Of a DNA stretch of 64,000 bases, positions 349 to 17,201 are shown piece after piece; within the stretch, counting starts at the first letter, position 1; every line of letters starts with the position of its first letter. The notes under the pieces are model-generated. The model was given only the letters and a program-made list of their open reading frames with translations, had not been told where the DNA came from and searched no databases. Made by a program: the position numbers and the translations under genes. This DNA is from Candidatus Nomurabacteria bacterium. GTDB lineage: Bacteria; Patescibacteriota; Minisyncoccia; Phycocordibacterales; UBA918. The stretch covers positions 65,421 through 129,420 of the forward strand of contig JACKGI010000003.1 in the NCBI GenBank assembly GCA_020632015.1, written 5' to 3'.

Positions 349-1203
349 ATGAATCAAACAATAATAATTGTCCTCGCTATCGGTATCCTTGCATTGGTTG
401 GTGTAGGTTTCTATTTCTCCAATAGCACAATGATGTCTGATGGAATGGATGAAATGCGTGAACACAATGATAACCTTGCCCCACATGAAATAAGTCCTGG
501 TGATGTCGTGAAAAAAGTGCAGTCAAAAGAAGATTTTGTACTACTTGATGTACGAACTTTAGAAGAATACGAAGAAATGCATTTAGAGAATGCTCTCTTG
601 TTACCAGTCCAAGAGTTGTCACAGGAAACCCTTACCAGAATCGGACTTGGTGAAGATGCAAAAGACAAAGAGATTGTTCTGTATTGTCGGAGTGGTGCTC
701 GAAGCCAAACGGCATACAACGTCATGAAATCACTTGGCTATACGAATATTAAAAGTGTGGCTGGAGGCATGATCCACTGGGAGGAGGATCAGTACCCACT
801 CACAGAGTCTGGTGCCTATACTGGACCGATGATGATGTCTGGTAGTGAAGAAAAAGCAACAAAGGCAGAAGGACCAAAAGTAGCGGTCGACCGCACACTG
901 CATGACTTTGGTATCATCCCGCAATATGGAGGGACTGTTGAGGCAGACTTCACAATAACCAACTCTGGAACAGAAGTTCTTGAGGTAGGGCAACTTACTA
1001 CTAGTTGTAGTTGCACATCAGCAACAATCTCAAACTCATCAATAAAACCAGGTGATAAAGCTACATTAACCGTAGTGTTTGACCCTGACTTCCACGAAGA
1101 GCCGTTTGATGTCTTCAAGCGCACTGTCTTTATTCCAACCAATGACCCAAATAACCCTGAAGCAGAAGTATCAGTGCAGGTTGATATTGCTGAAGGAGAA
1201 TAA
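349..1203 (+). CDS. membrane-anchored rhodanese-domain sulfurtransferase fused to a DUF1573-type domain
   Basis: N-terminal TM helix. Rhodanese active-site loop YCRSGARS. C-terminal HDFG...TSCSCTS...VFDP pattern typical of DUF1573. Confidence 0.75.
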   Translation: MNQTIIIVLAIGILALVGVGFYFSNSTMMSDGMDEMREHNDNLAPHEISPGDVVKKVQSKEDFVLLDVRTLEEYEEMHLENALLLPVQELSQETLTRIGLGEDAKDKEIVLYCRSGARSQTAYNVMKSLGYTNIKSVAGGMIHWEEDQYPLTESGAYTGPMMMSGSEEKATKAEGPKVAVDRTLHDFGIIPQYGGTVEADFTITNSGTEVLEVGQLTTSCSCTSATISNSSIKPGDKATLTVVFDPDFHEEPFDVFKRTVFIPTNDPNNPEAEVSVQVDIAEGE

Positions 1204-1225
1204 TTACTCACTTAAATTAAAAATT

Positions 1226-1699
1226 ATGAACAAATACATTATCGGCACCGTCATACTTGCTGTTGTACTAATTTTTGGAGCAAACTATCTTGGCAACAAG
1301 GATGAAACAACAAAAGCTGCCACAAACGTCACTTCTCCAATTGTCGTGTTAGAAAAGCCATACGATTTTGGAGACATAGACATCTTTGCAGGAAAAGTGA
1401 GTACAAACTATACGCTCAAGAACGAAGGGTTGGAAGATGTGACCATTACGCAAGCAGCCACCAGTTGTATGTGCACTGAGGGTGAAATTGCAGGTTTAAC
1501 ATTCGGCATGCATGGTAGCGAAGTAAAATCAGTTGTCATACCAGCTGGAGGTGAAGAAGTCGTTAAAGCTACGTTTGACCCGCTTGCACACGGTCCAGAA
1601 GGTACTGGGCCAATAACAAGAGAGTTGATACTCAAAACTAATTCACAAGAAACCCCAGACATTAGATTGAAGTTTAGCGGAAATGTTATTAAGAACTAG
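1226..1699 (+). CDS. DUF1573-type anchored/secreted protein
   Basis: Internal ATG at 1226 lies just after the stop of the previous gene, so the tracked 1079 start would overlap it. Signal/TM MNKYIIGTVILAVVLIF. YDFG...TSCMCTEG...FDP motif. Paralogous to the C-terminus of 349-1203. Confidence 0.7.
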   Translation: MNKYIIGTVILAVVLIFGANYLGNKDETTKAATNVTSPIVVLEKPYDFGDIDIFAGKVSTNYTLKNEGLEDVTITQAATSCMCTEGEIAGLTFGMHGSEVKSVVIPAGGEEVVKATFDPLAHGPEGTGPITRELILKTNSQETPDIRLKFSGNVIKN

Positions 1700-1705
1700 A
1701 TAAAA

Positions 1706-2449
1706 ATGACTGAAAATATTCAAACAAAAACTTCCAATAATTATCTCGTCCCCCTGGCAATTGTGATTGCCGGTGGCTTGGTGGCAGGAGCTGTCTTCAT
1801 GAGTAATGGAAGCGGAGGCAACAGCACTGCTACAGCAACAGAGACAGGTCAGCAAGTACAAAAAGAACCAGCTGGGACAACCGACGCGGTGAGAGCTGTT
1901 ACTAAAGATGACCATATCAAAGGAAATCTAGATGCTGCAGTAACGATTGTTGAGTACTCTGACTTTGAGTGCCCATTCTGCAAACGTTTCCACGACACCA
2001 TGAATGAAGTTATGAAAGAAGTCGATGACGGTCAGGTGGCGTGGGTCTTTAGACATTTTCCACTCGACCAATTACATCCAGTTAAAGCACGAGCTGTTGC
2101 AGTGGCCTCAGAGTGTGCAAGTGAACAAGGAGGCAATGAAAGCTTTTGGAAGTTTTCAGATAGGTATATGGAACTGACTCTGTCGAACAACAAAACTCCA
2201 ATCGAAACGGTGATTCCACAAATTGTACAAGAAATTGGTCTTAATAAATCAGCTTTTCAGACTTGTTTTGAGAGTGGAAAGTATGACCAACATATAGAAG
2301 ACGATATAGAGAATGCTATCGAGACTGGCGGACGAGGTACTCCATGGAGTGTGGTCATTGCACCAAATGGAAAAACTTTTCCATTAAATGGAGCACAACC
2401 ACTTGAAGCAGTAAAACAACTTATTAATCTTGCTGCGCAAGAGAAGTAA
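1706..2449 (+). CDS. DsbA-family thiol:disulfide oxidoreductase, membrane anchored
   Basis: Thioredoxin-fold CPFC active site (SDFECPFCKRF), N-terminal TM helix, DsbA-like length. Confidence 0.85.
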   Translation: MTENIQTKTSNNYLVPLAIVIAGGLVAGAVFMSNGSGGNSTATATETGQQVQKEPAGTTDAVRAVTKDDHIKGNLDAAVTIVEYSDFECPFCKRFHDTMNEVMKEVDDGQVAWVFRHFPLDQLHPVKARAVAVASECASEQGGNESFWKFSDRYMELTLSNNKTPIETVIPQIVQEIGLNKSAFQTCFESGKYDQHIEDDIENAIETGGRGTPWSVVIAPNGKTFPLNGAQPLEAVKQLINLAAQEK

Positions 2450-2454
2450 TTGGT

Positions 2455-3009
2455 ATGTGGCAAAGGCAACTTGGTACAGTATTCGCTAACCCAGTGTATG
2501 TATCCACTGCCATATTTATTGCGTGGGCCGTGTTTACCTTTGCTGTCTTACTGCCCAATATTCAACTTATCGGTGTGGTGTTGTTTTCGGATACTGCCTC
2601 AGCTTTAGAGAAAGCAAATTTTCTTTTTAGCCTCTACGGTTCAATTGGCACTAACTTCACACTTGTTTCAGCTTCGTCTACAGTCGTCATAGCAATACTT
2701 TTCGGTATTAATGTGACACTGCTTCTGTATTACATCCGTAAGGTTCGTGATGCTGTAAGTAACTTACGGTCAACAGGTGCAGCGGGTATCAGTGGGCTCA
2801 TAAGTGGAGTACTTGGCATTGGATGTGCTGCTTGTGGAACATTTGTTCTCACTTCAGTGTTGGCTCTCATTGGAGCAGGTGCCCTAGTTACATACCTACC
2901 ATTCAAGGGAGTAGAGTTTGGATTTATAGGGATAGGTTTATTGCTTTACTCTACTTACTCCCTCATTCGAAAAATAAACAGTCCACTGGTGTGTCGTATA
3001 GAAGAATAA
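2455..3009 (+). CDS. polytopic membrane protein with an intramembrane CxxC (GIGCAACGTF)
   Basis: Four to five hydrophobic helices with a CAAC pair inside one helix. Adjacent to the DsbA-like gene, so a redox-partner role is inferred only. Confidence 0.55.
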   Translation: MWQRQLGTVFANPVYVSTAIFIAWAVFTFAVLLPNIQLIGVVLFSDTASALEKANFLFSLYGSIGTNFTLVSASSTVVIAILFGINVTLLLYYIRKVRDAVSNLRSTGAAGISGLISGVLGIGCAACGTFVLTSVLALIGAGALVTYLPFKGVEFGFIGIGLLLYSTYSLIRKINSPLVCRIEE

Positions 3010-3024
3010 TTAATAAATAAAAAT

Positions 3025-4698
3025 ATGAAATATATAGTAGTTATAGGAGCGTTGGTGTTGTTGGTTATTGGAGGATTTTGGTATACCAACAATACTGAGA
3101 ATGGCTACCACATGGACTTCGATGGGGCGATGTCGGGGATGATGCAAGGTGGTGGCAAGGAAAGTCTCACAACACTACCAGACAGAGCATTAGAGAATGT
3201 TAAACCAACGGAGGTTGTTGAATTGAAAGACGGAGATACTTTTGATCTCACTGCATCAATCGTACAACAAGAAGTTGGTAATCGGACAGTGAAGCGACTG
3301 GCATACAATGGTCAGATTCCTGGTCCAGTCCTGAAGGTACAAAAGGGTGCAAAAGTGACCGTAAACTTTACCAACAACATAGATATGGAGACATCACTGC
3401 ACTCACATGGTCTGCGTGGAGATTATCTGATGGACGGTGCTGTTCCAATTACTCCCGCTATTCCGGTCGGAGAAAGTTTCTCATATGAATTGGAGTTCCC
3501 TGATACAGGAGTGTACTGGTATCACCCGCACGTTCGTGAAGACTACCAGCAAGAACTCGGTCTCTATGGAAACATGATTGTTACTGAGGATGGATATTGG
3601 AATCCGGTTGATACAGAGGAATACTTGATTCTTGATGACATTCTCGAGGGAGGTGACTTTAAGAAAGAGGTTGTGACCAACACCTTAATGGGTCGCTTCG
3701 GAAACACGCTTCTAATCAATGACCAAGAAGACTACATCTTAAACGTCAACCAAGGTGAGATAGCTCGATTGTTTCTCACGAACGTTGCCAACACACGGAC
3801 GTTCGACGTCACTTTCGATGGAGCAAAGACAAAACTAGTTGGAGGCGACAATGGACGTATTGAGAAAGAAGTTATGGTTGATGATGTAATTATTGGTACT
3901 TCAGAACGATATGTTGTTGAAGTGCTATATCCAGAAGCAGGCACCTATCCTATTACTCATCGAGGTAAAAAGATTGGTATGGTTGTGGTCAAAAGTAGCA
4001 CTGTGAACAAAAATGCGGAGTTTATGACTCTTCGTTCAAATACAGGTGACTATAGTAATATCCGCTCAAAACAAAGTCAGTTACTTGCTAAGACACCAGA
4101 TAAAAATCTGCGGTTGGACATCGAAATGAAAGGCGTGATGGGTAGCATGATGAATGATATGGGAGGTCAAGGTAACGGCATGATGATGGGTGGGAGTAAC
4201 GACGACGAGATGATGCGGGACCACTGTCAGATGATGCCAGAGATGGCTGGTTGTGAACCGTATCTTGATGAAGGAAGCGAGGAAGCTGGACATGGTGAAG
4301 ATGGTATCGAATGGGAAGACGATATGGCCATGATGAATAACATGAGTACCGATGAAAATATCGAGTGGGTTATTGAAGATACAGACTCAGGAAAGAAGAA
4401 CGACAAAATTGACTGGTCATTCAAGACTGGTGACTTAGTTAAGGTTCGTATATACAATGATGAAAAAGGACTGCATCCGATGCAGCATCCAATCCACTTC
4501 CATGGACAGCGGTTTGTGGTCTTGGCTCGTGATGGTCAAGCTAATGACAACCTACAATGGAAAGACACAGTGTTGATTCCAAAGGGACAGACAATTGATG
4601 TATTGGTCGACATGAGCAACCCAGGCACATGGATGGCACATTGCCACATTGCGGAGCACTTGCACTCAGGAATGATGTTCCAGTTTGAGGTGAAATAA
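3025..4698 (+). CDS. multicopper oxidase (CueO/CopA-like) with a Met/Gly/Asp-rich insert
   Basis: Copper-ligand motifs HSHG, WYHPH, HPIHFHG and HCHIAEHLHSGMM. About 80 aa of Met-rich sequence (MKGVMGSMMNDMGGQGNGMMMGG...). Confidence 0.85.
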   Translation: MKYIVVIGALVLLVIGGFWYTNNTENGYHMDFDGAMSGMMQGGGKESLTTLPDRALENVKPTEVVELKDGDTFDLTASIVQQEVGNRTVKRLAYNGQIPGPVLKVQKGAKVTVNFTNNIDMETSLHSHGLRGDYLMDGAVPITPAIPVGESFSYELEFPDTGVYWYHPHVREDYQQELGLYGNMIVTEDGYWNPVDTEEYLILDDILEGGDFKKEVVTNTLMGRFGNTLLINDQEDYILNVNQGEIARLFLTNVANTRTFDVTFDGAKTKLVGGDNGRIEKEVMVDDVIIGTSERYVVEVLYPEAGTYPITHRGKKIGMVVVKSSTVNKNAEFMTLRSNTGDYSNIRSKQSQLLAKTPDKNLRLDIEMKGVMGSMMNDMGGQGNGMMMGGSNDDEMMRDHCQMMPEMAGCEPYLDEGSEEAGHGEDGIEWEDDMAMMNNMSTDENIEWVIEDTDSGKKNDKIDWSFKTGDLVKVRIYNDEKGLHPMQHPIHFHGQRFVVLARDGQANDNLQWKDTVLIPKGQTIDVLVDMSNPGTWMAHCHIAEHLHSGMMFQFEVK

Positions 4699-4776: not shown

Positions 4777-5409
4777 ATGTCAGATAGATGGACAGAAAAT
4801 GTTAAGACAAATCTCTTGCCACTGAGTATTGAGAAAAATGATCTCAGAAAAGCCTTGGCTGAGTGGTTTTATACTGGTAATACATACGACCTTAGTTATC
4901 CTGATGAAAATTGCGAACTATGTAATCACCAAGGAATCAGGTTTCAGTTTGAAATTCAAAATTATCTTACCAAGAGTATCCTTTTAATTGGTTCAGAATG
5001 TATATTGCGTTTTTCTATTTCTGCAGTTGATGATCAAGGAAAAGTCTTAGACCAGAAAGAAACCACCAAAAAAGTTCATAAAGACAGACGGCAGTTAATA
5101 TCAGATGCAAGAACAAAGCGAGTAATTAATAGCTTGGTTGAATTAGCACAAAAAGACACAAAGTTTGACGGGATTGATAGTTCTATTGAATATTTTCAAG
5201 AGAGAGGTGCTTTTTCTCCTAAACATCTATTATTTTTACTTTGGAGGATGAAAGAGAGCGGTGTCTCTTTCAATAAGTCAGATTTCAAAATGACAATTAA
5301 AAGAAACAGAGAAAAGGATCAACTTTTAGATATGAAAGACTGGGAGGTTAGAAAAATATTACCAGCAATGTCTGCCTCACAACAAAAATGGTACCACGAG
5401 CATTCTTAA
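4777..5409 (+). CDS. hypothetical protein with an N-terminal CxxC motif
   Basis: 210-aa ORF containing CELCNHQGIRFQFEIQN...LLIGSECILRF. Its stop overlaps the convergent recombinase stop (TTAA). Confidence 0.5.
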   Translation: MSDRWTENVKTNLLPLSIEKNDLRKALAEWFYTGNTYDLSYPDENCELCNHQGIRFQFEIQNYLTKSILLIGSECILRFSISAVDDQGKVLDQKETTKKVHKDRRQLISDARTKRVINSLVELAQKDTKFDGIDSSIEYFQERGAFSPKHLLFLLWRMKESGVSFNKSDFKMTIKRNREKDQLLDMKDWEVRKILPAMSASQQKWYHEHS

Positions 5410-6701
5410 TTGATACTTAGCGAGAGTGTTTTATTTTTTAATATTAATTTACTTTCCAAACTTTCGAGCAATCTACGTTTTTCATCAATATTTCCATCTT
5501 TCAATATAAACTTGAAGTAAGTCTTAATATCTTTATCCGATACTTTGATTGCAGTACTTTTACCAGACAAAGCCAATTGAAATTTCTTGAATCTAGTCAC
5601 TTCTTCTTTAAGTTTCTTTAGCAGAGTATTTTCTTTTAACTTTATAGTGTCAACTAAATCTTGTAATTGTTTAATTAAATCATTTTCGTTTATATACCCA
5701 CATTTACAATTCTTGTCTTTTGCTTTTGTACAGCCATAGTAGATATGAGTATTAAACTTTCCATTCTTTAATTTCTTGTATTTTTCGTCTGCACTAATAC
5801 CAGAGCCGCACAGACCACAGGTCATTAGCTTGGTAAAAGCGAATTCTTTATCTTGTCTAGTTTTGAGTTGGTTGCCTTTTAGTTGTAATTGAACGGCATC
5901 AAATAGTTCTTTAGTAATTATTGGTTCATGTTTTCCTTTGTACCAAATACCAGCACCTCTTGGGTATTCAAACTCACCATAGTAGAAAGTATTTTCTAAG
6001 AGTTTGTATATGTTGCCGAGGCTGAGATGCTTCTTCCCAAGATGAGTACGAAAGTTTAAATCAAATTTAAGCCAATGATAGAGCTTTCTGCCTGACCATT
6101 GTTCATGGGCAACTTTTTCAAATATCTGCTTGATGACTGGTGCTCTGTCGGGGTCGATAAGACATTCATTCTTTCTGTCTAGTCTCCGTTCTTTTATATA
6201 GCCAGTAGCGGCTGTAGTTGGCCATAATCCAAGTTCACACCTTGCTCTTAGTCCTCGCTTCACATTAATACCCCGGTTGTCATTCTCTAGTTTTGCTTGG
6301 CTACAAAGAATCATTAAGAGAAACTTCTCATTTGGAGAGTTGCTGAATGTCTGTCCATATGTGCGAATAGATAAGAGTTTCCGTTCATCCATCAAATCAA
6401 CTACAGAGCCTAAATCTCCAGCGTTTCTACTTAATCTATCTGGTGCCCACGTAAGAATAGCGTTGAACTTTTCTTGCTTTACATCACCTAGTAATTCTTT
6501 GAATACTGGTCTGTTACCAGAATCCTTGGCTGACTTAGACTCACGTCTTATATCTACAACATCAATATTTTCACGCTCAGCGATTTGGAGCATTTCATTC
6601 ACTTGAGATTCAATTGATAGAGCTTGTCGCTCGTCACTCTCAGTACTTTTTCTTGCATACAAGCAGTATTTTAATTTCTCCACCGTTGCTCCTTCTGACA
6701 T
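5406..6701 (-). CDS. large serine recombinase (rec1)
   Basis: N-terminal resolvase motif YARKSTESDERQALSIESQ; the recombinase-domain and zinc-ribbon cysteines (TCGLCGSG...YYGC); and the coiled-coil C-terminus. Homologous to the 15423-16934 product (shared HEPIITKELFDAVQ). Confidence 0.85.
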   Translation of the reverse strand: MSEGATVEKLKYCLYARKSTESDERQALSIESQVNEMLQIAERENIDVVDIRRESKSAKDSGNRPVFKELLGDVKQEKFNAILTWAPDRLSRNAGDLGSVVDLMDERKLLSIRTYGQTFSNSPNEKFLLMILCSQAKLENDNRGINVKRGLRARCELGLWPTTAATGYIKERRLDRKNECLIDPDRAPVIKQIFEKVAHEQWSGRKLYHWLKFDLNFRTHLGKKHLSLGNIYKLLENTFYYGEFEYPRGAGIWYKGKHEPIITKELFDAVQLQLKGNQLKTRQDKEFAFTKLMTCGLCGSGISADEKYKKLKNGKFNTHIYYGCTKAKDKNCKCGYINENDLIKQLQDLVDTIKLKENTLLKKLKEEVTRFKKFQLALSGKSTAIKVSDKDIKTYFKFILKDGNIDEKRRLLESLESKLILKNKTLSLSIN

Positions 6702-6879
6702 ATCTATATTAATGACAGAACCACAAACCCTGCATAGCTATGCAAACAACAGAAACGTTATATACTCGCTTAGCAAAGGTTGAGTTTTGCGATATGATTG
6801 CCTTTAATAGCTTGGGAAGCTATTATATTGAACACAACAAAGACCTAACCCGACAGCTTGCTGGCGATATGGTCGTAAA

Positions 6880-6997
6880 ACCCGCTAGAGATCAAAGGAC
6901 TCCCAGTCAGAGTCACTCTAGCGGGTCATACCTGGAAACGGGTATGGGTCTGGCCGAAAGGTTGGATCGCAATGGCTGGGAGCCTTTTGGTATCCCA
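6880..6997 (+). ncRNA. candidate structured RNA or recombination-site region (unclassified)
   Basis: Consecutive stems: CCCGCTAGAG/CTCTAGCGGG enclosing GACTC..GAGTC; CATACC/GGTATG; CTGGCC-GAAA-GGTTGG with G.U pairs valid only on the + strand; CTGGGA/TCCCAG. Confidence 0.3.
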
Positions 6998-7028
6998 GTA
7001 TTTAACAAAATTAAATCCCGCTAGATTT

Positions 7029-7490
7029 ATGACAAATGAACAAACAAAGAAATGTAAGGAATGCCAGATGGACATTCCTAAAAAAGCACGACGGTGTCCT
7101 CATTGCCGAGCTAAACAAGGAATTGGATTGGGAGGACTAATATTAATTCTATTTCTTGGAGGATCTATCCTATCAGTTGTGATGTCCACGATAAGTGATA
7201 TCAGTAGTACCTCTAATACTAACTACGATGTAGGGACATATGTGCCTCCAGTTCGTGAAGGGGCATTTGAATTAGGAACATACAAAGTTGAATCAACTGA
7301 ATTCGCATATATCAATCCAAAAGAAGTTAACCTTTGGCAGTCATATTCTGACCGAAAGAAAGTTGGCTCAGTGAAAGAACACGCTGTGGTTGAGGTAACT
7401 GCTTATGATGAAGCGAATGACTACTGTAAAGTAACGGCTGGTGAGCAGACGGGCTGGACGGCATGTAATTGGTTAGTAAAAGCAGAGTAA
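7029..7490 (+). CDS. zinc-ribbon, TM and SH3b-like domain protein
   Basis: CKEC...CPHC zinc ribbon, one TM helix, C-terminal SH3-like segment. Start moved to ATG 7029 because upstream codons lie in the structured intergenic region. Confidence 0.55.
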   Translation: MTNEQTKKCKECQMDIPKKARRCPHCRAKQGIGLGGLILILFLGGSILSVVMSTISDISSTSNTNYDVGTYVPPVREGAFELGTYKVESTEFAYINPKEVNLWQSYSDRKKVGSVKEHAVVEVTAYDEANDYCKVTAGEQTGWTACNWLVKAE

Positions 7491-7492
7491 TT

Positions 7493-8929
7493 TTATCCCA
7501 GTAGGATACCTCGCTTTTTAGGTTTGCGATTCACTAGTATCTCAAGAATTGACATCGAAAAGGCGTCGGCTAGATCGTCGTGTTTTTCAACTCCAAAGTG
7601 AATTAATTCCTGCTCTAGTTTTGAGGATGCTCCAAAGGGAAAGAATACCTGTCCCGCACTTAACGGTGTGGCAGCTAAACTCAGCCGTTCACGCTTATCT
7701 CCTTGTGGTCTGATGCCTTCGACTTTAACATCATCTTCCTTAAGCTGTTGCACGATTGCTTCTTGATAGGCTACGTTCTCAATAAAGAACAATGGATCAA
7801 GTAAATACTTGGAGCGGAGTTTGTATTCAAGAAGCTTTATCTCCTGACAAGTCTCAGGAAAACTTAATCGTTTGTGTACGATTTCAGGTAGAATGTAAAG
7901 ATAAAGTTTTCTATCTTTCTCACAAGCTAGTATAGGTACTATTGCTGTGAAGTCAGCGTAGCTTTGTTTTGAAATAGCTAAATCAACTCCCACATATATT
8001 CCAAGCTGATGCATATCAGTGGGTATGTCGTGATAATGCTTGATCCATAGAGGATCTATGATTTGTCCTTCGTCAGCTATTAGTCTAAGTAGGTATTCTC
8101 GCTCCCATGCTTTAGCACTCATGACCTCTTTCTTGAGTTCAGCTAATGACTCAGGAGTTGTAAACTTTTCAGGCCATAAACACTCTCCGTTCTTGTCGAT
8201 AAGCGGAAACGCCTTGAATACACCTGACACCTCATCATTCTGAATCTTCTCTCGTAATCGCAAGATAAGTGAATCGTCATGGACTAAATTACCGATTAGA
8301 ATAATCTTTGTACCTAGATCACCCGAGGGAATAATTTCACTGGTAAACCAATTGAATGTCTTGTCTCGACCCTCTTGGGTTTTAGTGGAGCTAATGTCTT
8401 CAATGTCGTCACAGATAATTAAATCAGGTCGATGACTTTTATGTCGCAGTCCACGCATACTTTGATCGGCAGAAAGGACAGTAATGCGTGCATCATACTT
8501 AGGAATTACAATTGAAGATGCTCTCCATTCGTCTTGTGGTTCCTCAAACGGTCCAAGGTCTTGTCGCAAAAGTTCATTCCGTTCCAACTCTGCTTTAATG
8601 TTTTGTAGTAGCTGTTTCGCTTGAGGTTGTGTACGGGAGATTAACAGCACAAACTTTTTTTGTTGTACTCCAAGTATCGACCAAATTGGGTAGGACAGTG
8701 AAAAAATAGTGGACTTGGCAGATCCGCGGAAGGCTACCAAAACTGCTAGTTTTAGATCAGTCCGTTCAGTTATTTCAATCATTTCAGAATGAAACTTTGC
8801 ACTTGGATATTTCAGGTATTCACTAAAATACACAGGCAAGAAATAACCATGACTACGTGTAGTTATTTCACGTCTCACTAACGGATCAGAGATAACTCGT
8901 TCAAGTAATTCAAGTGGCATGTTATACAT
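7493..8929 (-). CDS. phage terminase large subunit-like protein
   Basis: Walker A-like FRGSAKST, Walker B LIICDDIED, and C-terminal RNase H-like nuclease acidic residues (GVDLA, ENVAYQ, HDDLADAF). Length 478 aa. Confidence 0.75.
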   Translation of the reverse strand: MYNMPLELLERVISDPLVRREITTRSHGYFLPVYFSEYLKYPSAKFHSEMIEITERTDLKLAVLVAFRGSAKSTIFSLSYPIWSILGVQQKKFVLLISRTQPQAKQLLQNIKAELERNELLRQDLGPFEEPQDEWRASSIVIPKYDARITVLSADQSMRGLRHKSHRPDLIICDDIEDISSTKTQEGRDKTFNWFTSEIIPSGDLGTKIILIGNLVHDDSLILRLREKIQNDEVSGVFKAFPLIDKNGECLWPEKFTTPESLAELKKEVMSAKAWEREYLLRLIADEGQIIDPLWIKHYHDIPTDMHQLGIYVGVDLAISKQSYADFTAIVPILACEKDRKLYLYILPEIVHKRLSFPETCQEIKLLEYKLRSKYLLDPLFFIENVAYQEAIVQQLKEDDVKVEGIRPQGDKRERLSLAATPLSAGQVFFPFGASSKLEQELIHFGVEKHDDLADAFSMSILEILVNRKPKKRGILLG

Positions 8930-9308
8930 GATCAGTTTTGATTAAATTAGCGTATTGAAGTGCTTGTTTAATAGTGTCTTTTTGTTCATCAGATAGCTCG
9001 GTATGTTTTGCTTCTTGAGTACGTAGTGGTTTGCTAGCGAAACGTTGGTGATTATTAGTAAGCCACAGACGTATGGCTGAGAACTTGCGATCTTTGATTA
9101 ACTGAAGCAACTGACTTTCACTCATGTCATTTACGAATGCCACACCTTCAGCTTCCGCTTCGGTAAGTCGTTTAGCAAAGTCTGAGTCTTCTCGTTTCCA
9201 TCGGTAGACAGTATTGCGTGAGATACCAGATTTTTCGCACGCAACTTGTATGATCGGCACTTTCCGTACCTCATCAAGAAATGTATCCATGTGACTAATT
9301 TTCTTCAT
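8922..9308 (-). CDS. HTH protein, probable terminase small subunit
   Basis: N-terminal HTH (SGISRNTVYRWKRE). Overlaps and precedes the large terminase gene. Confidence 0.5.
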   Translation of the reverse strand: MKKISHMDTFLDEVRKVPIIQVACEKSGISRNTVYRWKREDSDFAKRLTEAEAEGVAFVNDMSESQLLQLIKDRKFSAIRLWLTNNHQRFASKPLRTQEAKHTELSDEQKDTIKQALQYANLIKTDHV

Positions 9309-10578
9309 AGAAATTTTTGATTATCTCTACTTTGTTTCCAGTTAGTTTCTCGTATCGCCGACGAGCCAGTTCACAAAAAATCGGCTCTGACTCAAGAGAA
9401 TAGACACGACGATTCAGACTCTCAGCACAGACGAGCGTGCTGGCAGAACCTGAGAACGAGTCGAGAATAATGTCGTTTGGTTTTGTGCACCGCTTAATCG
9501 CTTTCTCATGCAGACTTGGCGGTTTAGATGTTGGATGTTCGTATTCACTAATCTTGATTCGTTTCGAAGCCCAGATATTGCTCACTGATTCAACTAAGTC
9601 ATTCCCAACGGCGACTTCAGCATTCATGATTTCAGTACAGTTCGTCATCTTCTTAGCGAGGTATGGAGATCCTTTTGTTCCGTAGACGCAGAATTCAATT
9701 GCTTTGTTAAAGGCGACAGTAGGGGTAGGGCTGGCATTGTTCTTTAACCAGATGTTGAGTCTACGGTTCTTTATACCTAGCTCGTTATATAAGGTCTGAA
9801 AAATCCAGACCCAAGCTTCATCACACCAGTACATGATGTGAGTATTCGGCGTGGCAACCGATAGCCCTGCTTCAAGTGTCTTGCGAATAAATGATTTGTA
9901 GTCATCGGGACTCTTGTTGTCCTGTACGTTACCTCCATAGTTAGCTTTGTTCCCGACGCCTTTGTTGTAGTCGAGGTTAATGTTGTATGGAGGATCTGAA
10001 TAGATCATGCTTGTTTTCTCTCCATCAAAGAGTACTTGAACAGCTTTTGAATCAGTAGAGTCACCACAGAGGATTTTGTGTTTACCTAGGATTAGCAAAT
10101 CACCTCGTTTTATATCGGTTGTCTTAATTTCCTTGAGTGCTTTTTCTTCATCAAACTCATCATCCTCGCTATGTTTATCTGTATCCCAGAAATCAGCTAA
10201 CTCGATATCTTCAAATCCAGCTTCAGTCAGGAGGTCAATATCGAAGCTCTTTAAAGCGTCGAGATCCCAGTCCCCGCCCAGCTTATTTGAAGATATGAGA
10301 TACTGCTCAAATTCTTTTTCAGTCAGTTTTCGATTAGGAACTCGTACATCAATCTCCTCATCGCCACGACCTAACAACTGCAATACTTTGAGACGTTGGT
10401 GTCCTGCGATTACTCGACCTGTAGTGTCGATGGCTGGTATTTCTACTAAGTTGAATTTACTCAGACTCTTTTTTAGTTTCTCCAACTGAATAGGGCTGAT
10501 AGTACGAGGGTTCTTCTCGTAGGGGACAAGATCACTTACTTTTCGCTTCTGTGTACTCCACTCTAGTTTTTTAGTCAT
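9295..10578 (-). CDS. ParB-like nuclease domain fused to a DNA methyltransferase (N6-A/N4-C, beta class)
   Basis: N-terminal ParB/Srx-like motif (NPRTISP...GHQR). Motif IV SDPPYN is followed later by motif I DSFSGSAST. Confidence 0.85.
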   Translation of the reverse strand: MTKKLEWSTQKRKVSDLVPYEKNPRTISPIQLEKLKKSLSKFNLVEIPAIDTTGRVIAGHQRLKVLQLLGRGDEEIDVRVPNRKLTEKEFEQYLISSNKLGGDWDLDALKSFDIDLLTEAGFEDIELADFWDTDKHSEDDEFDEEKALKEIKTTDIKRGDLLILGKHKILCGDSTDSKAVQVLFDGEKTSMIYSDPPYNINLDYNKGVGNKANYGGNVQDNKSPDDYKSFIRKTLEAGLSVATPNTHIMYWCDEAWVWIFQTLYNELGIKNRRLNIWLKNNASPTPTVAFNKAIEFCVYGTKGSPYLAKKMTNCTEIMNAEVAVGNDLVESVSNIWASKRIKISEYEHPTSKPPSLHEKAIKRCTKPNDIILDSFSGSASTLVCAESLNRRVYSLESEPIFCELARRRYEKLTGNKVEIIKNFYEEN

Positions 10579-11143: not shown

Positions 11144-11761
11144 ATGATAGATAACTTAAGTGATAAGGACCGCAGAGCGTTCTCCTTCATCCGAAACATG
11201 ATCATTAGTCAAGGCAGAAGTCCCTCACTGCGTGAAATAAACACAGTAACCAAAGACAGCTCCCCTCGCTCAGCTGGTCTAGCAATTGACCGACTGATAA
11301 AGGCAGGACTGCTTGAAAGGAAGGGGCGAAATTTGATCCTTACATCTGAACGCGATTCAAGTTCTGTACATACTGTGAACGTAAAACTCGTTAACAGTGT
11401 TGCTTGCGGTACACCAATGCTTGCTGAGGAAAATGTTGAAGCGGAAATCGCTGTATCAACCGCCTTAGCTAAGCCAGGTTTCCAATACTTTCTGCTACGC
11501 GCTAGTGGAAACTCCATGGATCAAGCGGGTATTAACTCTGGTGATCTACTATTGATTCGTCAGCAAACTACAGCAGAGAATGGACAGCGAGTAGTGGCGC
11601 TCATCAATGATGAAGCGACTGTAAAAGAATTTGAAAAGAACGGTGAAGTAGTAATACTCCGCCCACGTTCATCTAATAAGGAGCTTAGACCTATCGTACT
11701 TACCGATAACTGCATTATTCAGGGAGTGGTACAAGCAGTACTCCCTTCAGATATTTACTAA
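11144..11761 (+). CDS. LexA-type repressor (winged HTH + S24 peptidase)
   Basis: N-terminal LexA-like wHTH. S24 catalytic Ser in GNSM and Lys in TVKEF. The cleavage-region motif VACGTPMLAEE has CG where LexA has AG. Confidence 0.8.
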   Translation: MIDNLSDKDRRAFSFIRNMIISQGRSPSLREINTVTKDSSPRSAGLAIDRLIKAGLLERKGRNLILTSERDSSSVHTVNVKLVNSVACGTPMLAEENVEAEIAVSTALAKPGFQYFLLRASGNSMDQAGINSGDLLLIRQQTTAENGQRVVALINDEATVKEFEKNGEVVILRPRSSNKELRPIVLTDNCIIQGVVQAVLPSDIY

Positions 11762-11980: not shown

Positions 11981-12931
11981 ATGAATTTATCAAATGCACA
12001 ACTACTGAATTTCAAAGACCGAATTAAATTCACCGATGAAGATAAGAGAAAATTCCAACCTCAAATTGACCACTTGGTTTCTTCAATCAAGTCACATATT
12101 TCGGAAAAAACTGACACACGAGTGTTGAAAGTTCTGCAGTGCGGGTCTTGGCGAAAGGGTACTATTTTAAAGCCCAAAGATGATGTTCCTGTTGATATAG
12201 ATCTCGTTTTCTTTTTAGATATTGATCACGAGGATATTGATTCTTTAGAGCAAGCAAATAATTTTATTTTGCCGATTCTAAAAAGCATCTATCCCAAAAA
12301 GGAGGATAAGGATTTCTGGGATAGTCCGAAGACCGCAGGAATTGAATTTGTTGCTTCTGGATTAAATGTTGATGTTGTACCTGTTGGCAAAACGGACTAT
12401 GAAGACTACGTTGCTCAACCTGACAAAGATTCTAGGCAATACTTCACCTCGCCCAAAAAGCAATTGGAGTTTATTTCTGAAAGAAAAGAGGCAAATGTAA
12501 ATTTCACAGCAATCGTTCGTATCTTAAAAAAATGGCGTAACGTTCACGATGTTGATCTACCATCCTTCGCTATTGAACTAATTGTTGCTCATTTAGATAT
12601 AGTGAAAGGAGTTGAAATAGACATACAAGAGGCAATTTTGAGATTTTTGAAATTAGTAAGCAAAAAACAAATGCCTGTAATATTGTTTGACACTCCATAT
12701 GGCAGTTATGCCCATGATGGTGCGCATACCTACATAGCTGACCCTACCAATCAAGAAAATAATATTATGAAGAACTCATCTGATCTTGATTGGAATCGTA
12801 TTCGTATTGATGCTGATACAGCATTTGAAACCCTTTTATTAGCTGAAGAGCAGGATCATATAACCACTACAATAGATTTATGGAAAGAGGTGTTTGGTTC
12901 TAGCTTTAACATTGACCCTATAGAAAATTAA
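11981..12931 (+). CDS. CD-NTase/SMODS-like nucleotidyltransferase (putative signalling-nucleotide synthase)
   Basis: Pol-beta NTase signature QCGSWRKGT...VPVDIDLVFF, a third acidic strand NVDVVPV, and the OAS/cGAS/DncV-type helix KKWRN...LPSFAIELIVAH. Length 316 aa. Confidence 0.7.
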   Translation: MNLSNAQLLNFKDRIKFTDEDKRKFQPQIDHLVSSIKSHISEKTDTRVLKVLQCGSWRKGTILKPKDDVPVDIDLVFFLDIDHEDIDSLEQANNFILPILKSIYPKKEDKDFWDSPKTAGIEFVASGLNVDVVPVGKTDYEDYVAQPDKDSRQYFTSPKKQLEFISERKEANVNFTAIVRILKKWRNVHDVDLPSFAIELIVAHLDIVKGVEIDIQEAILRFLKLVSKKQMPVILFDTPYGSYAHDGAHTYIADPTNQENNIMKNSSDLDWNRIRIDADTAFETLLLAEEQDHITTTIDLWKEVFGSSFNIDPIEN

Positions 12932-15422: not shown

Positions 15423-16934
15423 CTAACTCGAGGAAGCCCGCACTTTAGGACAATCAACGGAAACAGAACCCGAGGCCGCCGCCGCGCAAGCGGCGGCGTG
15501 CCATGTGGCGGCCAAAGCAAAGGGCGAACGGCGCGGCACGCACAGCGTGCGCGCGGAAATGGACGGGTTCGAACCGATCTTTTTGAGGAAATCTCGATTT
15601 TCTTCGAGATTTCCTCGTGAAGTGATTTTTCCGGCTTGGTTGAGCGATTTAAGGAAGCGGGTCAAAGGTTCGAACCGATTATCACTCGTTCGCTCAAAAA
15701 CGGCGATTTGCTCTTTGAGGTCGGTCTTGCGATTTAGGAGCACTTGCTTTTTGTTTGTGTACTCGGTGTGTGTAATGGAACCATCAAGTTGGAGATCAAG
15801 CAAAGCGTCGAGTTTCTTCTCGATCGTTGTTATCTCACTTTCGAGTTTTTGAACGGACGACCGTTCCGCGTGTTGGTGGTGCGTGCGTTCTTTTTCTAAA
15901 ATTTGCACGCACGCATCCACCCACGCGGACGGCAAAGAAACTTTTTGGACTTCTTCTCGTACTTGCTCGGCTATTGCTTCCTCGCGCACATAGGGTTGGG
16001 TACATACTCCGCGGCGTTTGGTGCAGCGAAGGTAGTTGTGTCCTTTCTGAGTCTCGGTGGTTATCATGCAATCACACTCGCCACAACGGAACACGCCGCG
16101 GTAACTGTACGGCTTCAGTTTGGGTGCGCGAGTAGTGCGCGACTTGCTTCCCATGATGCTCTGTACCGCATCAAAAAGTTTCTTAGTGATAATCGGTTCA
16201 TGGACTCCGTCATAGAGTTCACCACCATATCTGATAGCTCCGTAGTAGATTGGATTCTTGAGTAGGTACTGATAGTTTGAAATTGAAAGGAGTTTATCCC
16301 GCTTCCCAACCAAGCCAGATTCGTTGATAACCTTTCGGAGTTTCAATAAGGGGTATTCGCCAGTTGCATAAAGCTCAAATGCTTTGCGGATGAGGGTTGC
16401 CTTGTCTGTATCGGGGACAATAGTGCGATTTGTTTTGTCATTCAAATATCCGATAGGTGCATATCCTGGCCATACGCCATTGCGGAGCTTCTGGCGAATA
16501 CCCCTCCTGATGTTCTCCGAAAGGTTATCAACGTAGTATTTGGATTGGCCGAAGGCGATGTTGAGCATGAACTTACCTTGCGGTGTATTTTCAAACCACA
16601 GGGTTGGAAACTTCAAGTACTTCAACTTACCAACATCCAGCAGATAAATAATCTTGCCGCCATCTACACTATTGCGCGCCAACCTATCCGCGTGCCACGC
16701 TACGATACCTTCAACATCGCCGTTCTCGACGCTCGCAAGCATCTCATTGAAAACTTCTCGTCCTGGTTCTTTCGCCGTCTTGCTCTCAACAAACTCACGG
16801 ACGATATGCAAATTCTCTTTTCGTGCAAACTCTCTCAATTCATGGAGCTGCGCCTCTATGCTTAGCACTTGCCTCTGCGCTTCGTCCGTGGACTTGCGAG
16901 CGTAGAGATAAAATTTTTGCGGAGTATCTTTCAT
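15423..16934 (-). CDS. large serine recombinase (rec2)
   Basis: YARKSTDEAQRQVLSIEAQ catalytic region, zinc-ribbon cysteines (RCGECDC...LRCTKRRGVC) and the coiled-coil C-terminus. Start set at the MKDTPQKF ATG. The last ~49 codons run through repeat A' and 14 nt into flanking DNA. Confidence 0.8.
   Translation of the reverse strand: MKDTPQKFYLYARKSTDEAQRQVLSIEAQLHELREFARKENLHIVREFVESKTAKEPGREVFNEMLASVENGDVEGIVAWHADRLARNSVDGGKIIYLLDVGKLKYLKFPTLWFENTPQGKFMLNIAFGQSKYYVDNLSENIRRGIRQKLRNGVWPGYAPIGYLNDKTNRTIVPDTDKATLIRKAFELYATGEYPLLKLRKVINESGLVGKRDKLLSISNYQYLLKNPIYYGAIRYGGELYDGVHEPIITKKLFDAVQSIMGSKSRTTRAPKLKPYSYRGVFRCGECDCMITTETQKGHNYLRCTKRRGVCTQPYVREEAIAEQVREEVQKVSLPSAWVDACVQILEKERTHHQHAERSSVQKLESEITTIEKKLDALLDLQLDGSITHTEYTNKKQVLLNRKTDLKEQIAVFERTSDNRFEPLTRFLKSLNQAGKITSRGNLEENRDFLKKIGSNPSISARTLCVPRRSPFALAATWHAAACAAAASGSVSVDCPKVRASSS
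15438..15571. repeat. inverted repeat A' (reverse complement of 17202-17335)
   Basis: 134 bp aligned by eye, with about 6 mismatches clustered around 15536-15556. Confidence 0.85.
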
Positions 16935-17201
16935 ATGGAAACTATAATAGCCGTCCTTGGTGTACCCAACCCGAGAAGACCTCGAATTGCCCAAAGACGG
17001 CCATTAAAAAAGACCTTCTCGATTTGGTTGGGTACACTCACATTCTATCATACACAGAATAAACAGAGCAAAAATTTTCGGACAATCCAAATACTCAAAA
17101 TCGCTTCACGCCGCTCAAATAGAGCAGACAAAAAGATCGGTTGTTTTGTGCAACAAAACGCGTGCGTGGTTGTGAACCTTAAATATTCACAACAAGCACG
17201 A

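Follow-up and report, generated by a model that had tools for sequence, protein, structure and literature searches.

LOOT RNA in a phage-derived island of a Patescibacteria chromosome: a candidate leader of variable cargo genes

What is encoded in the 327 bp that separate the start of a large serine recombinase gene (rec1, 6701) from the start of a zinc-ribbon gene (7029)? The gap lies in the window, by which we mean the whole stretch of 64,000 nucleotides analysed here and to which all coordinates refer. An initial annotation had described a densely structured non-coding stretch next to rec1 and had named two candidate roles, an element-encoded structured RNA or the recombination and regulatory site of the recombinase. 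The length of the gap and all of the stems listed there were borne out, and the question becomes which RNA or DNA element they build and what it does between its two neighbouring genes.

Identity and fold of the RNA

A covariance-model scan (cmscan), the Rfam/Infernal check that had been proposed initially, aligned the locus with the complete Rfam model RF03000, the LOOT RNA, with a score of 76.9 bits versus a gathering score of 46.4 (E = 1e-12, model positions 1-121 of 121). We regard it as nearly certain that positions 6842-6968 of the + strand are a LOOT RNA gene. The window copy departs from the consensus at three positions (G26A, C27U and A35U), contains all the sequence blocks of the model (CCUAA-C, (G/A)(C/U)AUGG, AAAA-C, G-U and GAAA) and forms four consecutive hairpins, P1 to P4, several of them with tetraloop caps (Table 1). 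Nothing about it excludes membership of the family; the four stems match together with the conserved CCUAA...AUGG, AAAA and GAAA. The element begins 18 nt earlier than the start at 6860 that had been annotated, which missed P1. Each locus holds one LOOT copy, and no riboswitch family matched the window copy in the Rfam scan (E <= 1). The LOOT motif comes from Weinberg et al. 2017 (PMC5737381) and appears as a 'metagenomic-based RNA' in the Rfam 14 paper (PMC7779021); its Rfam entry has the class small RNA (sRNA), and neither organism nor function was given for it in the searched literature.

Table 1. Features of the LOOT locus and its neighbours in the window
Feature	Position	Strand	Details	Basis
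Large serine recombinase (integrase)	5406-6701	-	divergent from LOOT	Pfam, PHROG
Predicted sigma-70-type promoter	6798-6826	+	TTGCCT, 17 nt, TATTAT	consensus scan
LOOT RNA, Rfam-delimited	6842-6968	+	P1 to P4	cmscan
P1 hairpin	6842-6874	+	loop CUUG	sequence; stems 93-94% paired with compensatory changes
J1/2 linker	6875-6880	+	GUAAAA	AAA upper-case (highly conserved) in Rfam consensus
P2	6881-6925	+	outer stem a CCCGCTAGAG (6881-6890) : a' CTCTAGCGGG (6916-6925); apical strand b CUCCCAGUC (6900-6908)	duplex test
P3 hairpin	6927-6946	+	6927-6934 : 6939-6946, GAAA loop 6935-6938	covariation
P4 hairpin	6947-6968	+	6947-6955 : 6960-6968, GAAA loop 6956-6959	79-96% of cells paired
3' tail beyond Rfam model	6974-6988	+	b' GGCUGGGAG (6974-6982), CC, U-tract 6985-6988	covariation, duplex test
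b''	6993-6998	+	UCCCAG, second partner of b'	minimum-free-energy fold
a''	7012-7025	+	UAAAUCCCGCUAGA, copy of J1/2 and P2 5' strand	13/14 nt match 6876-6889
Cargo gene D1	7029-7490	+	153 aa; N-terminal CxxC...CxxC zinc ribbon and hydrophobic segment	ORF
Terminase-ParB module	7493-10578	-	large terminase subunit 7493-8929, small 8922-9308, ParB-DNA methyltransferase fusion 9295-10578	PHROG, Pfam

Homologues were collected from species-representative genomes using a degenerate LOOT pattern, which yielded 116 true copies, 90 of them labelled Patescibacteria/CPR. Scoring by covariance model confirmed the family in all 16 homologous loci tested (62.6-100 bits) and in none of two decoy loci. In our alignment A1 the AAA of J1/2 was fixed by the search pattern, and the alignment therefore carries no independent evidence on these bases. 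The strict pattern overlooks genuine copies such as L119, in which J1/2 is one nucleotide longer, so the two pattern scans of viral contigs that gave no LOOT match are weak evidence for its absence there.

The + strand folds with a minimum free energy of -67.7 kcal/mol versus -43.2 +/- 3.7 kcal/mol for 200 shuffled sequences (z = -6.65), none of which was as good, while the - strand reaches a z of -3.1 only. Covariation in the 116 homologues supports P1, P3 and P4. P3, of which CATACC/GGTATG is a part, is paired in 96.3% of cells with compensatory changes at 8/8 pairs, and its GAAA loop is upper-case in the Rfam consensus. P4 includes CTGGCC-GAAA-GGTTGG with its three G.U pairs, and its loop differs among homologues (GCAA in 41, GAAA in 25, UUCG in 12 and GUAA in 10). 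For the outer stem of P2, strand a pairs with its own a' at -15.7 kcal/mol versus -3.4 kcal/mol with the a' of other loci, and its own a' falls within the best 10% of partners in 100% of loci. Closure of the fold by pairing of the 5' leader with the 3' tail was rejected, the own partner giving -4.5 versus -4.2 kcal/mol for others.

With its strand-specific fold, the G.U pairs of P4 and the U.G pairs of a pseudoknot described below, the conserved element reads as RNA rather than DNA. The first of the two proposed roles, an element-encoded structured RNA, thereby stands on the full-length Rfam match, the strand-specific pairs (the G.U pairing had been recognized as such), the covariation and the location in an island beside a large serine recombinase; the comparison with shuffled sequences and the search for covariation, both suggested in the initial annotation, came out on the side of structure. 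Its doubt about a 94-aa ORF in the same place was also well founded. All six frames contain stops in 70 of the 116 homologous regions and the open frames elsewhere are inconsistent, and we rejected this ORF as protein-coding for want of a conserved open frame.

Pseudoknot, 3' tail and tetraloop receptor

RF03000 is truncated at its 3' end. It stops before a helix of 9 bp in which b' of the 3' tail pairs with b, the apical strand of P2, to form a pseudoknot. In A1 (columns 64-72 with 155-163) 94.1% of cells are paired and 9/9 pairs have changed on both sides, and the helix holds two conserved U.G pairs. A duplex test that needs no alignment gave -21.5 kcal/mol for b with its own tail versus -11.3 kcal/mol with other tails and, using refined segment limits, ranked the tail of the same locus among the best 10% of partners in 98% of loci. 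The helix measures 9 bp in the window and up to 13 bp elsewhere, and a T-rich run follows 1-2 nt after it. The apical P2 hairpin of the Rfam model competes with this stronger helix: its mean energy is -5.6 kcal/mol, it overlaps the pseudoknot by 4 nt or more in 98% of sequences and it is 67% paired on a MAFFT alignment. Because it is weak and overlaps the pseudoknot we dropped it as a stable element, and it is at most a possible transient competitor.

The strands of the pseudoknot had been read initially as parts of two mini-hairpins, GAC-TCCCA-GTC (6898-6908) and GGC-TGGGA-GCC (6974-6984). Both sequences are present, but they make one pseudoknot helix and not two hairpins. The sharing of the TGGGA pentamer with tRNA-linked hairpins is likewise factual (long TGGGA-loop hairpins lie at 6805-6825, 50613-50631, 51756-51776 and 62871-62893, with 9 such matches versus 1.6 expected), but a functional link with them lacks comparative support and we did not retain it; the positions concerned vary and covary among homologues, and the pentamer is therefore not a feature of the LOOT family.

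Because b' abuts the U-tract, the completed fold resembles an intrinsic terminator, and to judge from its sequence the 3' end would be a terminator-like helix and U-tract whose helix is a pseudoknot rather than a simple hairpin. A TTTTTG run after b' is at least 90% conserved; the window copy has only four U, and a simple terminator scanner made no call at b:b' and the U-tract in the window. The U-tract can also pair with an A-rich stretch 5' of b (63% paired, mostly invariant) and could be a mere extension of the pseudoknot helix.

The internal loop of P1, CCUAAC (6844-6849) / UAUGG (6868-6872), agrees at 10 of 11 positions with the canonical 11-nt GAAA tetraloop receptor, CCUAAG/UAUGG (PMC11381326). 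It is thus near-identical to the receptor of the group I intron P4-P6 domain and the c-di-GMP-I riboswitch, and the GAAA loop conserved on P3 is likely its partner, which would dock into P1. The family consensus at this site is CCUAAA/CAUGG. Where the canonical receptor has a G.U position LOOT has instead two non-canonical positions that covary, as A.C in 81 sequences and as C.U in 29.

The island, its cargo and a possible alternative fold

The LOOT locus is inside an integrated, phage-derived island of a CPR (Patescibacteria) chromosome. The recombinase has the Pfam domains Resolvase, Recombinase and Zn_ribbon_recom and matches PHROG 95, integrase (E = 1e-62). Among loci with at least 1.5 kb of sequence upstream of LOOT, 45 of 84 have a recombinase homologue there, encoded on the other strand; where 4 kb or more is available the figure is 31 of 47, so that the divergent arrangement is found in 54-66% of loci. 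From the other side the terminase-ParB genes converge on the cargo gene. The gene order of this module recurs (L013-type loci, L085, L030, L088, L078, L079, L100, L059, L119-122 and L126), and the elements comprise an S24 repressor, the ParB-methyltransferase, small and large terminase subunits, LOOT with its cargo and the serine integrase. No capsid genes were found within 10 kb in the annotated contexts of these islands, which may for that reason be phage satellites.

LOOT appears to keep company with the cargo. In L127/128 and L129 nothing separates the terminase gene from the integrase gene, cargo and LOOT being both absent, and since integrase-terminase modules that lack cargo also lack LOOT, we conclude that LOOT travels with the cargo. 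At L124/125 it is 5 kb from the integrase yet directly ahead of the last two cargo genes. Nearly without exception the gene after LOOT has the same orientation, and its start is called mostly about 35-100 nt past the end of P3; in homologues the U-tract ends about 45-50 nt past the same point. In 99 homologous loci the first downstream genes belong to very diverse families, including zinc ribbons, DUF2726, DUF4352, DUF805, peptidoglycan-binding domains and nucleases; neighbours in recombinase-free loci include restriction-modification, ImmA, ABC-3C, GmrSD and Ltp genes. CD-NTase genes are also frequent in the islands. The cargo gene of the window, D1, had no match in Pfam and weak matches in PHROG to families of unknown function, and is probably co-transcribed with LOOT by the predicted read-through. 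Upstream, the -10 box of the predicted promoter falls within the 3' arm of a hairpin or inverted repeat (6805-6825), and homologues have a -10-like box followed by a motif, ACAAyTrAATA, 5-15 nt before P1. Pairing of the 5' leader with the region before the cargo start was rejected (-8.7 versus -8.4 kcal/mol).

Two segments between the tail and the cargo start offer other partners to the strands of the fold. The first, b'', pairs with b' (CTGGGA 6976-6981 with TCCCAG 6993-6998) and leaves the U-tract within the loop. Across the family, duplexes of b' with the 30 nt that follow it in its own locus have an energy of -11.9 kcal/mol versus -8.7 kcal/mol for other loci, and its own downstream partner is in the best 10% in 33% of loci versus 10% expected; b'' is a feature of a subset of loci only. 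The second, a'', lies 3 nt before the cargo start codon, at positions -4 to -17 from the AUG, and can pair with a'. About 25 of 114 loci have a copy of this type, which invariably sits a short way ahead of the AUG and matches the a of its own locus (at least 15 different a sequences are represented), and a' can form 9 bp or more with sequence downstream in 21% of loci versus 4% in controls. Homologous zinc-ribbon cargo in the window, L010 and L119 comes with three different matched sets of a, a' and a''. As a'' is the only extra copy of a in 8-kb loci, we rejected this single local repeat as a cassette array or att core. The nested order a'...b' / b''...a'' allows a clean four-way junction, and RNA truncated at its 5' end folds into one, made of a':a'', P3, P4 and b':b''. 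For 12 of 111 loci, energy minimization of the read-through RNA already yields the alternative fold.

Possible modes of action

Taken together, these observations lead us to propose, with a probability of roughly 0.5, that LOOT is a cis-acting structured leader that gates both transcription and translation of the variable cargo operon between the terminase and integrase genes. The predicted promoter would fire away from the integrase gene and into LOOT, and docking of the P3 GAAA in the P1 loop would keep the RNA compact. Completion of the pseudoknot might then act much as an intrinsic terminator does, and most transcripts would end near 6988 as an RNA of about 150 nt. In read-through transcripts LOOT would become the leader of the cargo gene, and the alternative pairing of a' with a'' and of the tail with b'' would bury the start region. 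A ligand, a protein, RNA processing or temperature are candidates for the signal that would shift this balance. Since no more than about 20-30% of loci show a'' and b'' clearly, such a translational lock is not the general mechanism of the family. The promoter, the 3' end and the read-through are predictions from the DNA itself, and the gate model has drawbacks of its own. Its two outputs are opposed, as the fold that would stop transcription would also keep the start site accessible; a pseudoknot is unusual as a terminator helix; the cargo families are too diverse to point to a ligand; and an RNA with so much tertiary structure might equally work in trans.

Known leaders offer a partial parallel. 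As in the three-part switch of riboswitches and attenuators (anti-anti-RBS, anti-RBS and RBS), a, a' and a'' are mutually exclusive partners; as in riboswitch terminator platforms, a helix and a U-tract stand ahead of the gene; and riboswitch expression platforms vary within a class as the downstream pairing of LOOT varies by locus. Unlike riboswitch leaders, LOOT precedes genes with no metabolic theme, its terminator helix would be a pseudoknot and the competitor of that helix, the apical P2 hairpin, is weak.

That LOOT instead works in trans, as a stand-alone RNA of 150 nt serving as a protein scaffold or decoy or as an antitoxin-like partner of island proteins while terminator leakage feeds the downstream gene, we consider rather unlikely. 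Such an RNA would suit the predicted promoter and terminator-like end of its own, the Rfam class sRNA and a compact architecture (receptor-tetraloop pair and pseudoknot) typical of partner-binding RNAs, and the ACAAyTrAATA motif upstream of P1 could serve as a single-stranded 5' seed. It would, however, need neither a start codon that nearly always follows closely on the same strand nor the complementarity of a'' and b''; the cargo proteins are too varied for one common RNA partner, and no pairing of the 5' leader with the integrase start region or with downstream sequence was found. Type III toxin-antitoxin loci consist of a promoter, a structured RNA, a terminator and a protein gene, a layout that by analogy may favour a role in trans. 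With them and with the abiF-motif RNA, reportedly the leader of prophage abortive-infection genes, LOOT shares its setting, a mobile element in which a structured RNA, with a terminator or, in LOOT, a terminator-like end, precedes a gene of defence or exclusion type. Type III antitoxin RNAs are tandem repeats processed by the downstream endoribonuclease toxin, whereas LOOT is a single copy, and the proteins encoded behind it differ by locus and have no relation to ToxN or AbiF; the 25 Pfam families listed as commonest among the downstream genes include none of ToxN or AbiQ type. With one copy per locus and diverse downstream proteins, LOOT was rejected as a type III antitoxin RNA.

The leader reading can also be taken further. 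LOOT may be a new class of signal-sensing switchable leader, with a pseudoknot terminator and an a/a'/a'' start lock, for defence or exclusion cassettes in an undescribed family of compact CPR integrative elements; the signal might be a small molecule, a protein of the phage or host, or RNA processing in the course of an infection. We hold this further reading to be doubtful.

The second role named initially, that of a site for the recombinase, fared badly, and so did any wider partnership of LOOT with the enzyme, whether as a DNA attachment site or as an RNA cofactor, guide or directionality factor, which we judge highly improbable. The serine recombinase is by far the commonest neighbour family and often only 127-163 nt away, and at L076 and L063 it is co-directional and ends 39-40 nt before LOOT, so that adjacency is kept in two arrangements. 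The IS110 bridge RNA and the omega RNAs were orphan RNAs beside recombinase or nuclease genes before they proved to be guides, and LOOT might by analogy be another. Against this, recombinases 74-87% identical to that of the window (L123 and L127/128) have no LOOT, nor has the module of L129, a viral contig and the one IMG/VR terminase relative, in which the integrase directly follows the large terminase gene. Conversely, 15 loci with at least 3 kb of upstream sequence have LOOT and no nearby recombinase, and at L124/125 the 5 kb between them leave LOOT adjacent to cargo. The variable segments of LOOT are all used in internal helices, which leaves no free guide loop; the sole matching DNA, a'' and b'', is local, nested and confined to a minority of loci. 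Pairing of LOOT, leader or whole, with the integrase start region was not found (leader -14.6 versus -9.9 kcal/mol on average, with equal medians and the own partner in the best 10% in 11%). With such internal pairing and a co-occurrence with the enzyme that is not strict, LOOT was rejected as a guide or bridge RNA. Recombinase, LOOT, cargo and terminase are contiguous within large chromosomal contigs; integration has thus not divided any att site that might lie between recombinase and LOOT, and the G.U and U.G pairs further speak against a duplex DNA site. LOOT was accordingly rejected as an attP of the serine integrase, its conservation obeying RNA pairing including these wobble pairs.

In integrons as in these islands, the recombinase gene points away from a conserved element close to the promoter, and behind that element come same-strand genes that vary greatly. 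Unlike integrons, the LOOT islands have a serine and not a tyrosine recombinase, their cargo is bounded by a terminase gene, no attC-like repeats follow the cargo and the a-type repeat occurs once only.

Folded single-stranded DNA also tolerates G.T wobble and GAAA-type loops, and some LOOT loci encode a protein (cluster 9) with a HUH-like motif, as judged by eye. The discovery method of Weinberg et al. can moreover, as those authors note, pick up attC-like DNA structures (PMC5737381). That the structure acts as + strand single-stranded DNA, as an island replication or packaging origin or an integron-attC-like site, is nevertheless scarcely credible, given the 11-nt receptor/GAAA module, which is an RNA tertiary motif, the predicted promoter upstream and the U-tract right behind the last helix, the fixed orientation towards the downstream gene with a'' at its start codon, and a single copy rather than an array.

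Compared with the RF03000 model and the searched literature, what is new is the pseudoknot with the 3' tail and U-tract, the CPR/Patescibacteria-labelled hosts, the position as a cargo leader and, in a subset of loci, the alternative downstream pairing. The omission of the pseudoknot and the U-tract from the Rfam model matters for homology searches and for structural work, and both the tetraloop-receptor pair and the a/a'/a'' switch are proposals specific enough for mutational tests. With no structural genes nearby, the series repressor, ParB-methyltransferase, terminase, LOOT-cargo and integrase may be the hallmark of a satellite-like family of CPR elements. LOOT, previously an orphan motif, thus becomes a testable regulatory element in the poorly understood CPR/Patescibacteria.

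A LOOT RNA in the window and its hosts

The Rfam 15 scan of the whole window gave a single non-tRNA match, the LOOT RNA (RF03000), which scored 76.9 bits (gathering score 46.4) over the full model, positions 1-121 of 121. This copy is a new member of the known family. Folded as RNA, the + strand of 6860-7010 reached -67.7 kcal/mol, clearly beyond the -43.2 +/- 3.7 of 200 dinucleotide shuffles (z = -6.65, no shuffle equal), whereas the - strand gave a z of only -3.1; the fold signal is therefore real and strand-specific. The structured stretch proposed in the initial annotation is thus borne out by both scan and shuffles, and all the stems that it named were found within 6842-7028. The element starts 18 nt earlier than the proposed 6860, at 6842, and hairpin P1 had been overlooked.

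LOOT was originally reported by Weinberg et al. 2017 (PMC5737381), whose main text does not discuss it; the Rfam papers list it as a metagenomic-based RNA and record R-scape refinements, and a CaCoFold paper gives it ~43 base pairs in six helices. In the literature searched neither host nor function was given; the family is known, but an orphan in function. Compared with the model and this literature, four points described below appear to be new: the assignment of hosts, the setting in islands, the 3' extension with its pseudoknot and putative terminator, and the a/a'/a'' arrangement. The supplementary drawing of the original paper or the full-hit lists of Rfam might already hold part of them.

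Homologues were searched with a degenerate pattern built from conserved Rfam positions. It had no match in a viral contig collection and at least 118 loci in a species-representative genome collection, and 116 of the 118 matches listed were true LOOTs (16 of 16 tested loci scored 62.6-100 bits in Rfam). Two decoys, from Verrucomicrobiales and Bacteroidaceae, were rejected as they had no Rfam match. The strict pattern overlooks copies such as L119, a real LOOT whose P1-P2 linker (J1/2) is one nucleotide longer, and the family is therefore wider than counted. Among the matches listed, 90 of the 116 LOOT loci are assigned by name to CPR/Patescibacteria (Saccharibacteria, Paceibacterota/Parcubacteria, Gottesman-, Curtiss-, Levy-, Roizman-, Falkow-, Uhr-, Magasanik-, Berkel-, Doudna- and Andersenbacteria, WWE3 and others); a further 11 have the label 'bacterium' and 15 bear other labels, the latter mostly co-assembly bins, with one 'Pseudomonadales' isolate being HK-STAS-PATE-15. 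Many LOOT contigs are 0.1-1.1 Mb long and therefore chromosomal. Three genomes among the matches listed hold two copies, nearly identical in JBAQWP01 (L013, L015) and clearly different in JBAXAF01 (L022, L042) and JAPLXT01 (L026, L061), and a single near-identical LOOT, the L013 family, was found across at least eight species bins. Sequence comparison thus points to an accessory, mobile distribution.

Features of the window island and of the LOOT region
Feature	Position	Strand	Sequence or remark
Copper/redox flank	349-4698
Large serine recombinase	5406-6701	-
14-bp perfect palindrome	6731-6744		TGCATAGCTATGCA
Predicted LOOT promoter	6798-6826		TTGCCT-17-TATTAT
UGGGA hairpins	6805-6825, 50613-50631, 51756-51776, 62871-62893	+
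5' motif region	6827-6841		GAACACAACAAAGAC
LOOT	6842-6988	+
Rfam match	6842-6968	+
J1/2 + P2 5' strand	6876-6889	+	duplicated in a''
P2 outer stem, a/a'	6881-6890/6916-6925	+
Pseudoknot strand b	6900-6908	+	CUCCCAGUC
Pseudoknot strand b'	6974-6982	+	GGCUGGGAG
b''	6993-6998	+	second partner of b'
a''	7012-7025	+	UAAAUCCCGCUAGA
Cargo D1	7029-7490	+	153-aa zinc-ribbon/membrane protein
Large terminase subunit	7493-8929	-
Small terminase subunit	8922-9308	-
ParB-methyltransferase	9295-10578	-
LexA/S24-type repressor	11144-11761	+
SMODS nucleotidyltransferase	11981-12931	+	CD-NTase-like, after LexA-like repressor
Second large serine recombinase	15423-16994	-	523 aa

Pseudoknot, tetraloop receptor and 5' region

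The 116 listed LOOT sequences, extended 60 nt 3', were aligned with MAFFT. In this alignment the known helices covary, with 93-94% of cells paired in P1, 96% in P3 and 79-96% in P4. The P2 outer stem was smeared by length variation; scored without alignment, it gave -15.7 kcal/mol with its own partner and -3.4 with partners from other loci. The fold also reaches past the end of the Rfam model, where the tail strand b' pairs with strand b at the top of P2 in a pseudoknot. What had been read as two independent mini-hairpins are actually both strands of this one helix, which is 94.1% paired across the 116 sequences and changes on both sides at 9 of 9 pairs (at one position CG 34, AU 33, GC 28, UG 10 and UA 5). 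Alignment-free energies were -21.5 kcal/mol for own strands and -11.3 for those of other loci, and this support is unbiased because the tail lies outside the search pattern. Two conserved U.G pairs in the helix are possible on the + strand only. A T-rich run, at least 90% conserved in the alignment, follows 1-2 nt after it. The apical P2 hairpin drawn by Rfam is weak (mean -5.6 kcal/mol) and overlaps the pseudoknot by at least 4 nt in 98% of sequences; the two are alternatives.

The canonical 11-nt GAAA tetraloop receptor, CCUAAG/UAUGG (PMC11381326), has a close variant in the internal loop of P1, which reads CCUAAC/UAUGG in the window and CCUAAA/CAUGG in the consensus; the two positions that depart from the canonical sequence covary (A.C in 81 and C.U in 29 sequences among the matches listed). 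P3 is capped by a GAAA loop that the Rfam consensus shows as strongly conserved, and the loops of P1 and P4 are variable; we infer that the P3 loop contacts the P1 receptor.

LOOT transcription would start from the predicted promoter. In many loci a motif, ACAAyTrAATA, outside the coverage of the Rfam model, lies 5-15 nt 5' of P1. Its place directly after a -10-like box makes it the probable 5' end of the LOOT transcript; a pairing partner for it was looked for and none was found. The four long UGGGA hairpins of the window (a GGG triloop closed by U-A) have similar arms (consensus AAAnAGTYTGGGARACTnTTT); one overlaps the predicted -10 box, the other three being close to tRNA genes or gene starts. 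Counted over the window, TGGGA or TCCCA loops on stems of 3 bp or more number 9 vs 1.6 expected from shuffles. In LOOT relatives the equivalent place holds an inverted repeat with different loops.

Gene neighbourhoods and the reverse test

LOOT holds a fixed place ahead of variable genes. The gene 3' of it is almost always on the same strand, with a called start mostly ~35-100 nt past the end of P3; the U-tract ends ~45-50 nt past P3, leaving little space for a separate cargo promoter. What this gene encodes differs extremely from locus to locus: zinc ribbons, DUF2726, DUF4352, DUF805, peptidoglycan-binding domains and nucleases are among the products, and many genes fit no family. Among the matches listed, 45 of the 84 loci with at least 1.5 kb upstream, and 31 of the 47 with at least 4 kb, have a homologous serine recombinase there, encoded on the opposite strand; in ~16-18 loci the genes for both terminase subunits and the ParB-methyltransferase converge from the downstream side. 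Fifteen listed loci with no recombinase in reach have restriction-modification, ImmA, ABC-3C, GmrSD and Ltp-type genes as well as host genes.

Protein clusters at 74-94% identity to the window recombinase number more than 120; where names are given, they are mainly from Patescibacteria, Parcubacteria, Paceibacterota and Falkowbacteria. In a reverse test we inspected the contexts of five such recombinases and of one viral-contig terminase relative. LOOT was present at L119-122 (87% identical), a window-like module including the copper-oxidase flank, and at L126 (74%), where it adjoins the recombinase. At L124/125 (76%), with four cargo genes, it lies 5 kb from the integrase, immediately 5' of the last two cargo genes, which adjoin the large terminase gene. 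At L127/128 (74%) the large terminase gene is followed directly by the integrase gene, and at L129 (IMG/VR, terminase 81% identical) by a 439-aa ORF taken to be the integrase, both without cargo and without LOOT; L123 (79%) has neither terminase nor LOOT. From these presences and absences, LOOT travels with the cargo operon, whose insertion point is between the large terminase gene 3' end and the integrase gene 5' end.

The window is host chromosome of CPR type, with type IV pilus genes, NAD-dependent DNA ligase, GatA and tRNAs, in which the island stands from ~4.7 kb on. The compact layout of the island recurs in CPR contigs (window 4.7-20 kb; L119-L129): S24/LexA-like repressor, small ORF, ParB-methyltransferase, small and large terminase subunits, optional LOOT and cargo, serine integrase. 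No capsid or portal family was matched among the scanned island ORFs, several ORFs at 10.7-20.4 kb being without match or unscanned, nor within 10 kb in five recombinase contexts with annotated neighbours. Frequent neighbours are CBASS-type nucleotidyltransferases, DUF4238, helicase-NYN genes, a diversity-generating retroelement and restriction-modification genes. Copper/redox genes (multicopper oxidase, rhodanese-DUF1573, DsbA-like protein, heavy-metal P-type ATPase) stand repeatedly at the integrase end in different bins (the window; L119, 11337-21290; L099, L067, L100, L023), either as island cargo or as a preferred integration neighbourhood. The second serine recombinase, in a higher-GC stretch at 16-20 kb, has no accompanying LOOT.

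The palindrome, in the integrase 5' region between recombinase gene and LOOT, is a candidate operator or recombinase site. It is kept in L043, L054, L067, L074, L086, L099, L119 and L123, and differs by one substitution in L078 and L100. In its place, other subfamilies of the integrase have GCCAAC-AAGTT-GTCGAC, a distinct conserved site whose half-sites are swapped in L127. Elsewhere in the window, one tRNA-Met upstream region and 5' end is partly duplicated (~50590-50612 vs 50735-50760), and a second tRNA-Met 3' end with following sequence (ATCCTCCCGTCGACACAGTTATAAAAACC) recurs ~150 bp downstream (~51700 vs 51853); these att-like direct repeats suggest that integration took place at the tRNA genes in the past.

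A possible second conformation before the cargo start

In the window, a'' duplicates J1/2 and the P2 5' strand and ends 3 nt before the cargo AUG. Equivalents occur in ~25 of 114 loci among the matches listed, usually 0-12 nt from the start codon and in at least 15 versions, each matching its own locus's a; a'' is the only extra copy of a found within the loci, and its mismatches sit at a single J1/2 position that is also variable in LOOT itself. Homologous zinc-ribbon cargo comes with three different matched sets (CCCGCUAGAG in the window, CGUAAGCCAC in L010/L085, CGCAAUCAAC in L119). A second tail partner, b'', lies 3' of the U-tract in a subset, the own partner ranking in the best 10% for 33% of loci vs 10% expected; the CTGGGA/TCCCAG stem described initially corresponds to b':b'' in the window. 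The order a'...b' / b''...a'' is nested, and RNA without its 5' part folds cleanly into a four-way junction made up of a':a'', P3, P4 and b':b''; in 12 of 111 loci among the matches listed, the read-through RNA already has this fold as its nested minimum-free-energy structure. A downstream partner of at least 9 bp for a' is found in 21% of loci vs 4% when downstream sequence is swapped between loci; the alternative complementarity is present in a subset of loci. T counts after the tail were 6.09/9 with a'' and 6.68/9 without (p = 0.005). A Shine-Dalgarno-like motif precedes only 8 of 56 window genes, and its absence before the cargo gene is therefore unremarkable. Several genes have a TATAnT box 6-8 nt 5' of the ATG (e.g. 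24283, 50878, 53174); the sequence suggests that leaderless mRNAs are frequent in the host.

Taken together, the observed and inferred points lead us to favour LOOT as a cis-acting gate on the cargo operon, with a probability of about 0.5. The tetraloop would dock into its receptor, the pseudoknot and U-tract would halt most transcripts, and read-through transcripts would be able to refold, masking a''. Against this gate weigh the pseudoknot, unusual as a terminator helix, and the restriction of the downstream switch to a minority of loci. The main rival, a stand-alone RNA acting in trans, is possible but distinctly less probable, set beside the fixed place of LOOT ahead of same-strand genes. 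A role tied to the recombinase, offered initially as a recombination or regulatory site next to that gene, is unlikely: LOOT is linked to the cargo, not to the integrase, which has no need of it. Action as single-stranded DNA is the least likely of all. The gate in cis that we favour would thus serve the cargo operon of a recurring CPR module, perhaps a family of islands with a phage-satellite-like or defence character.
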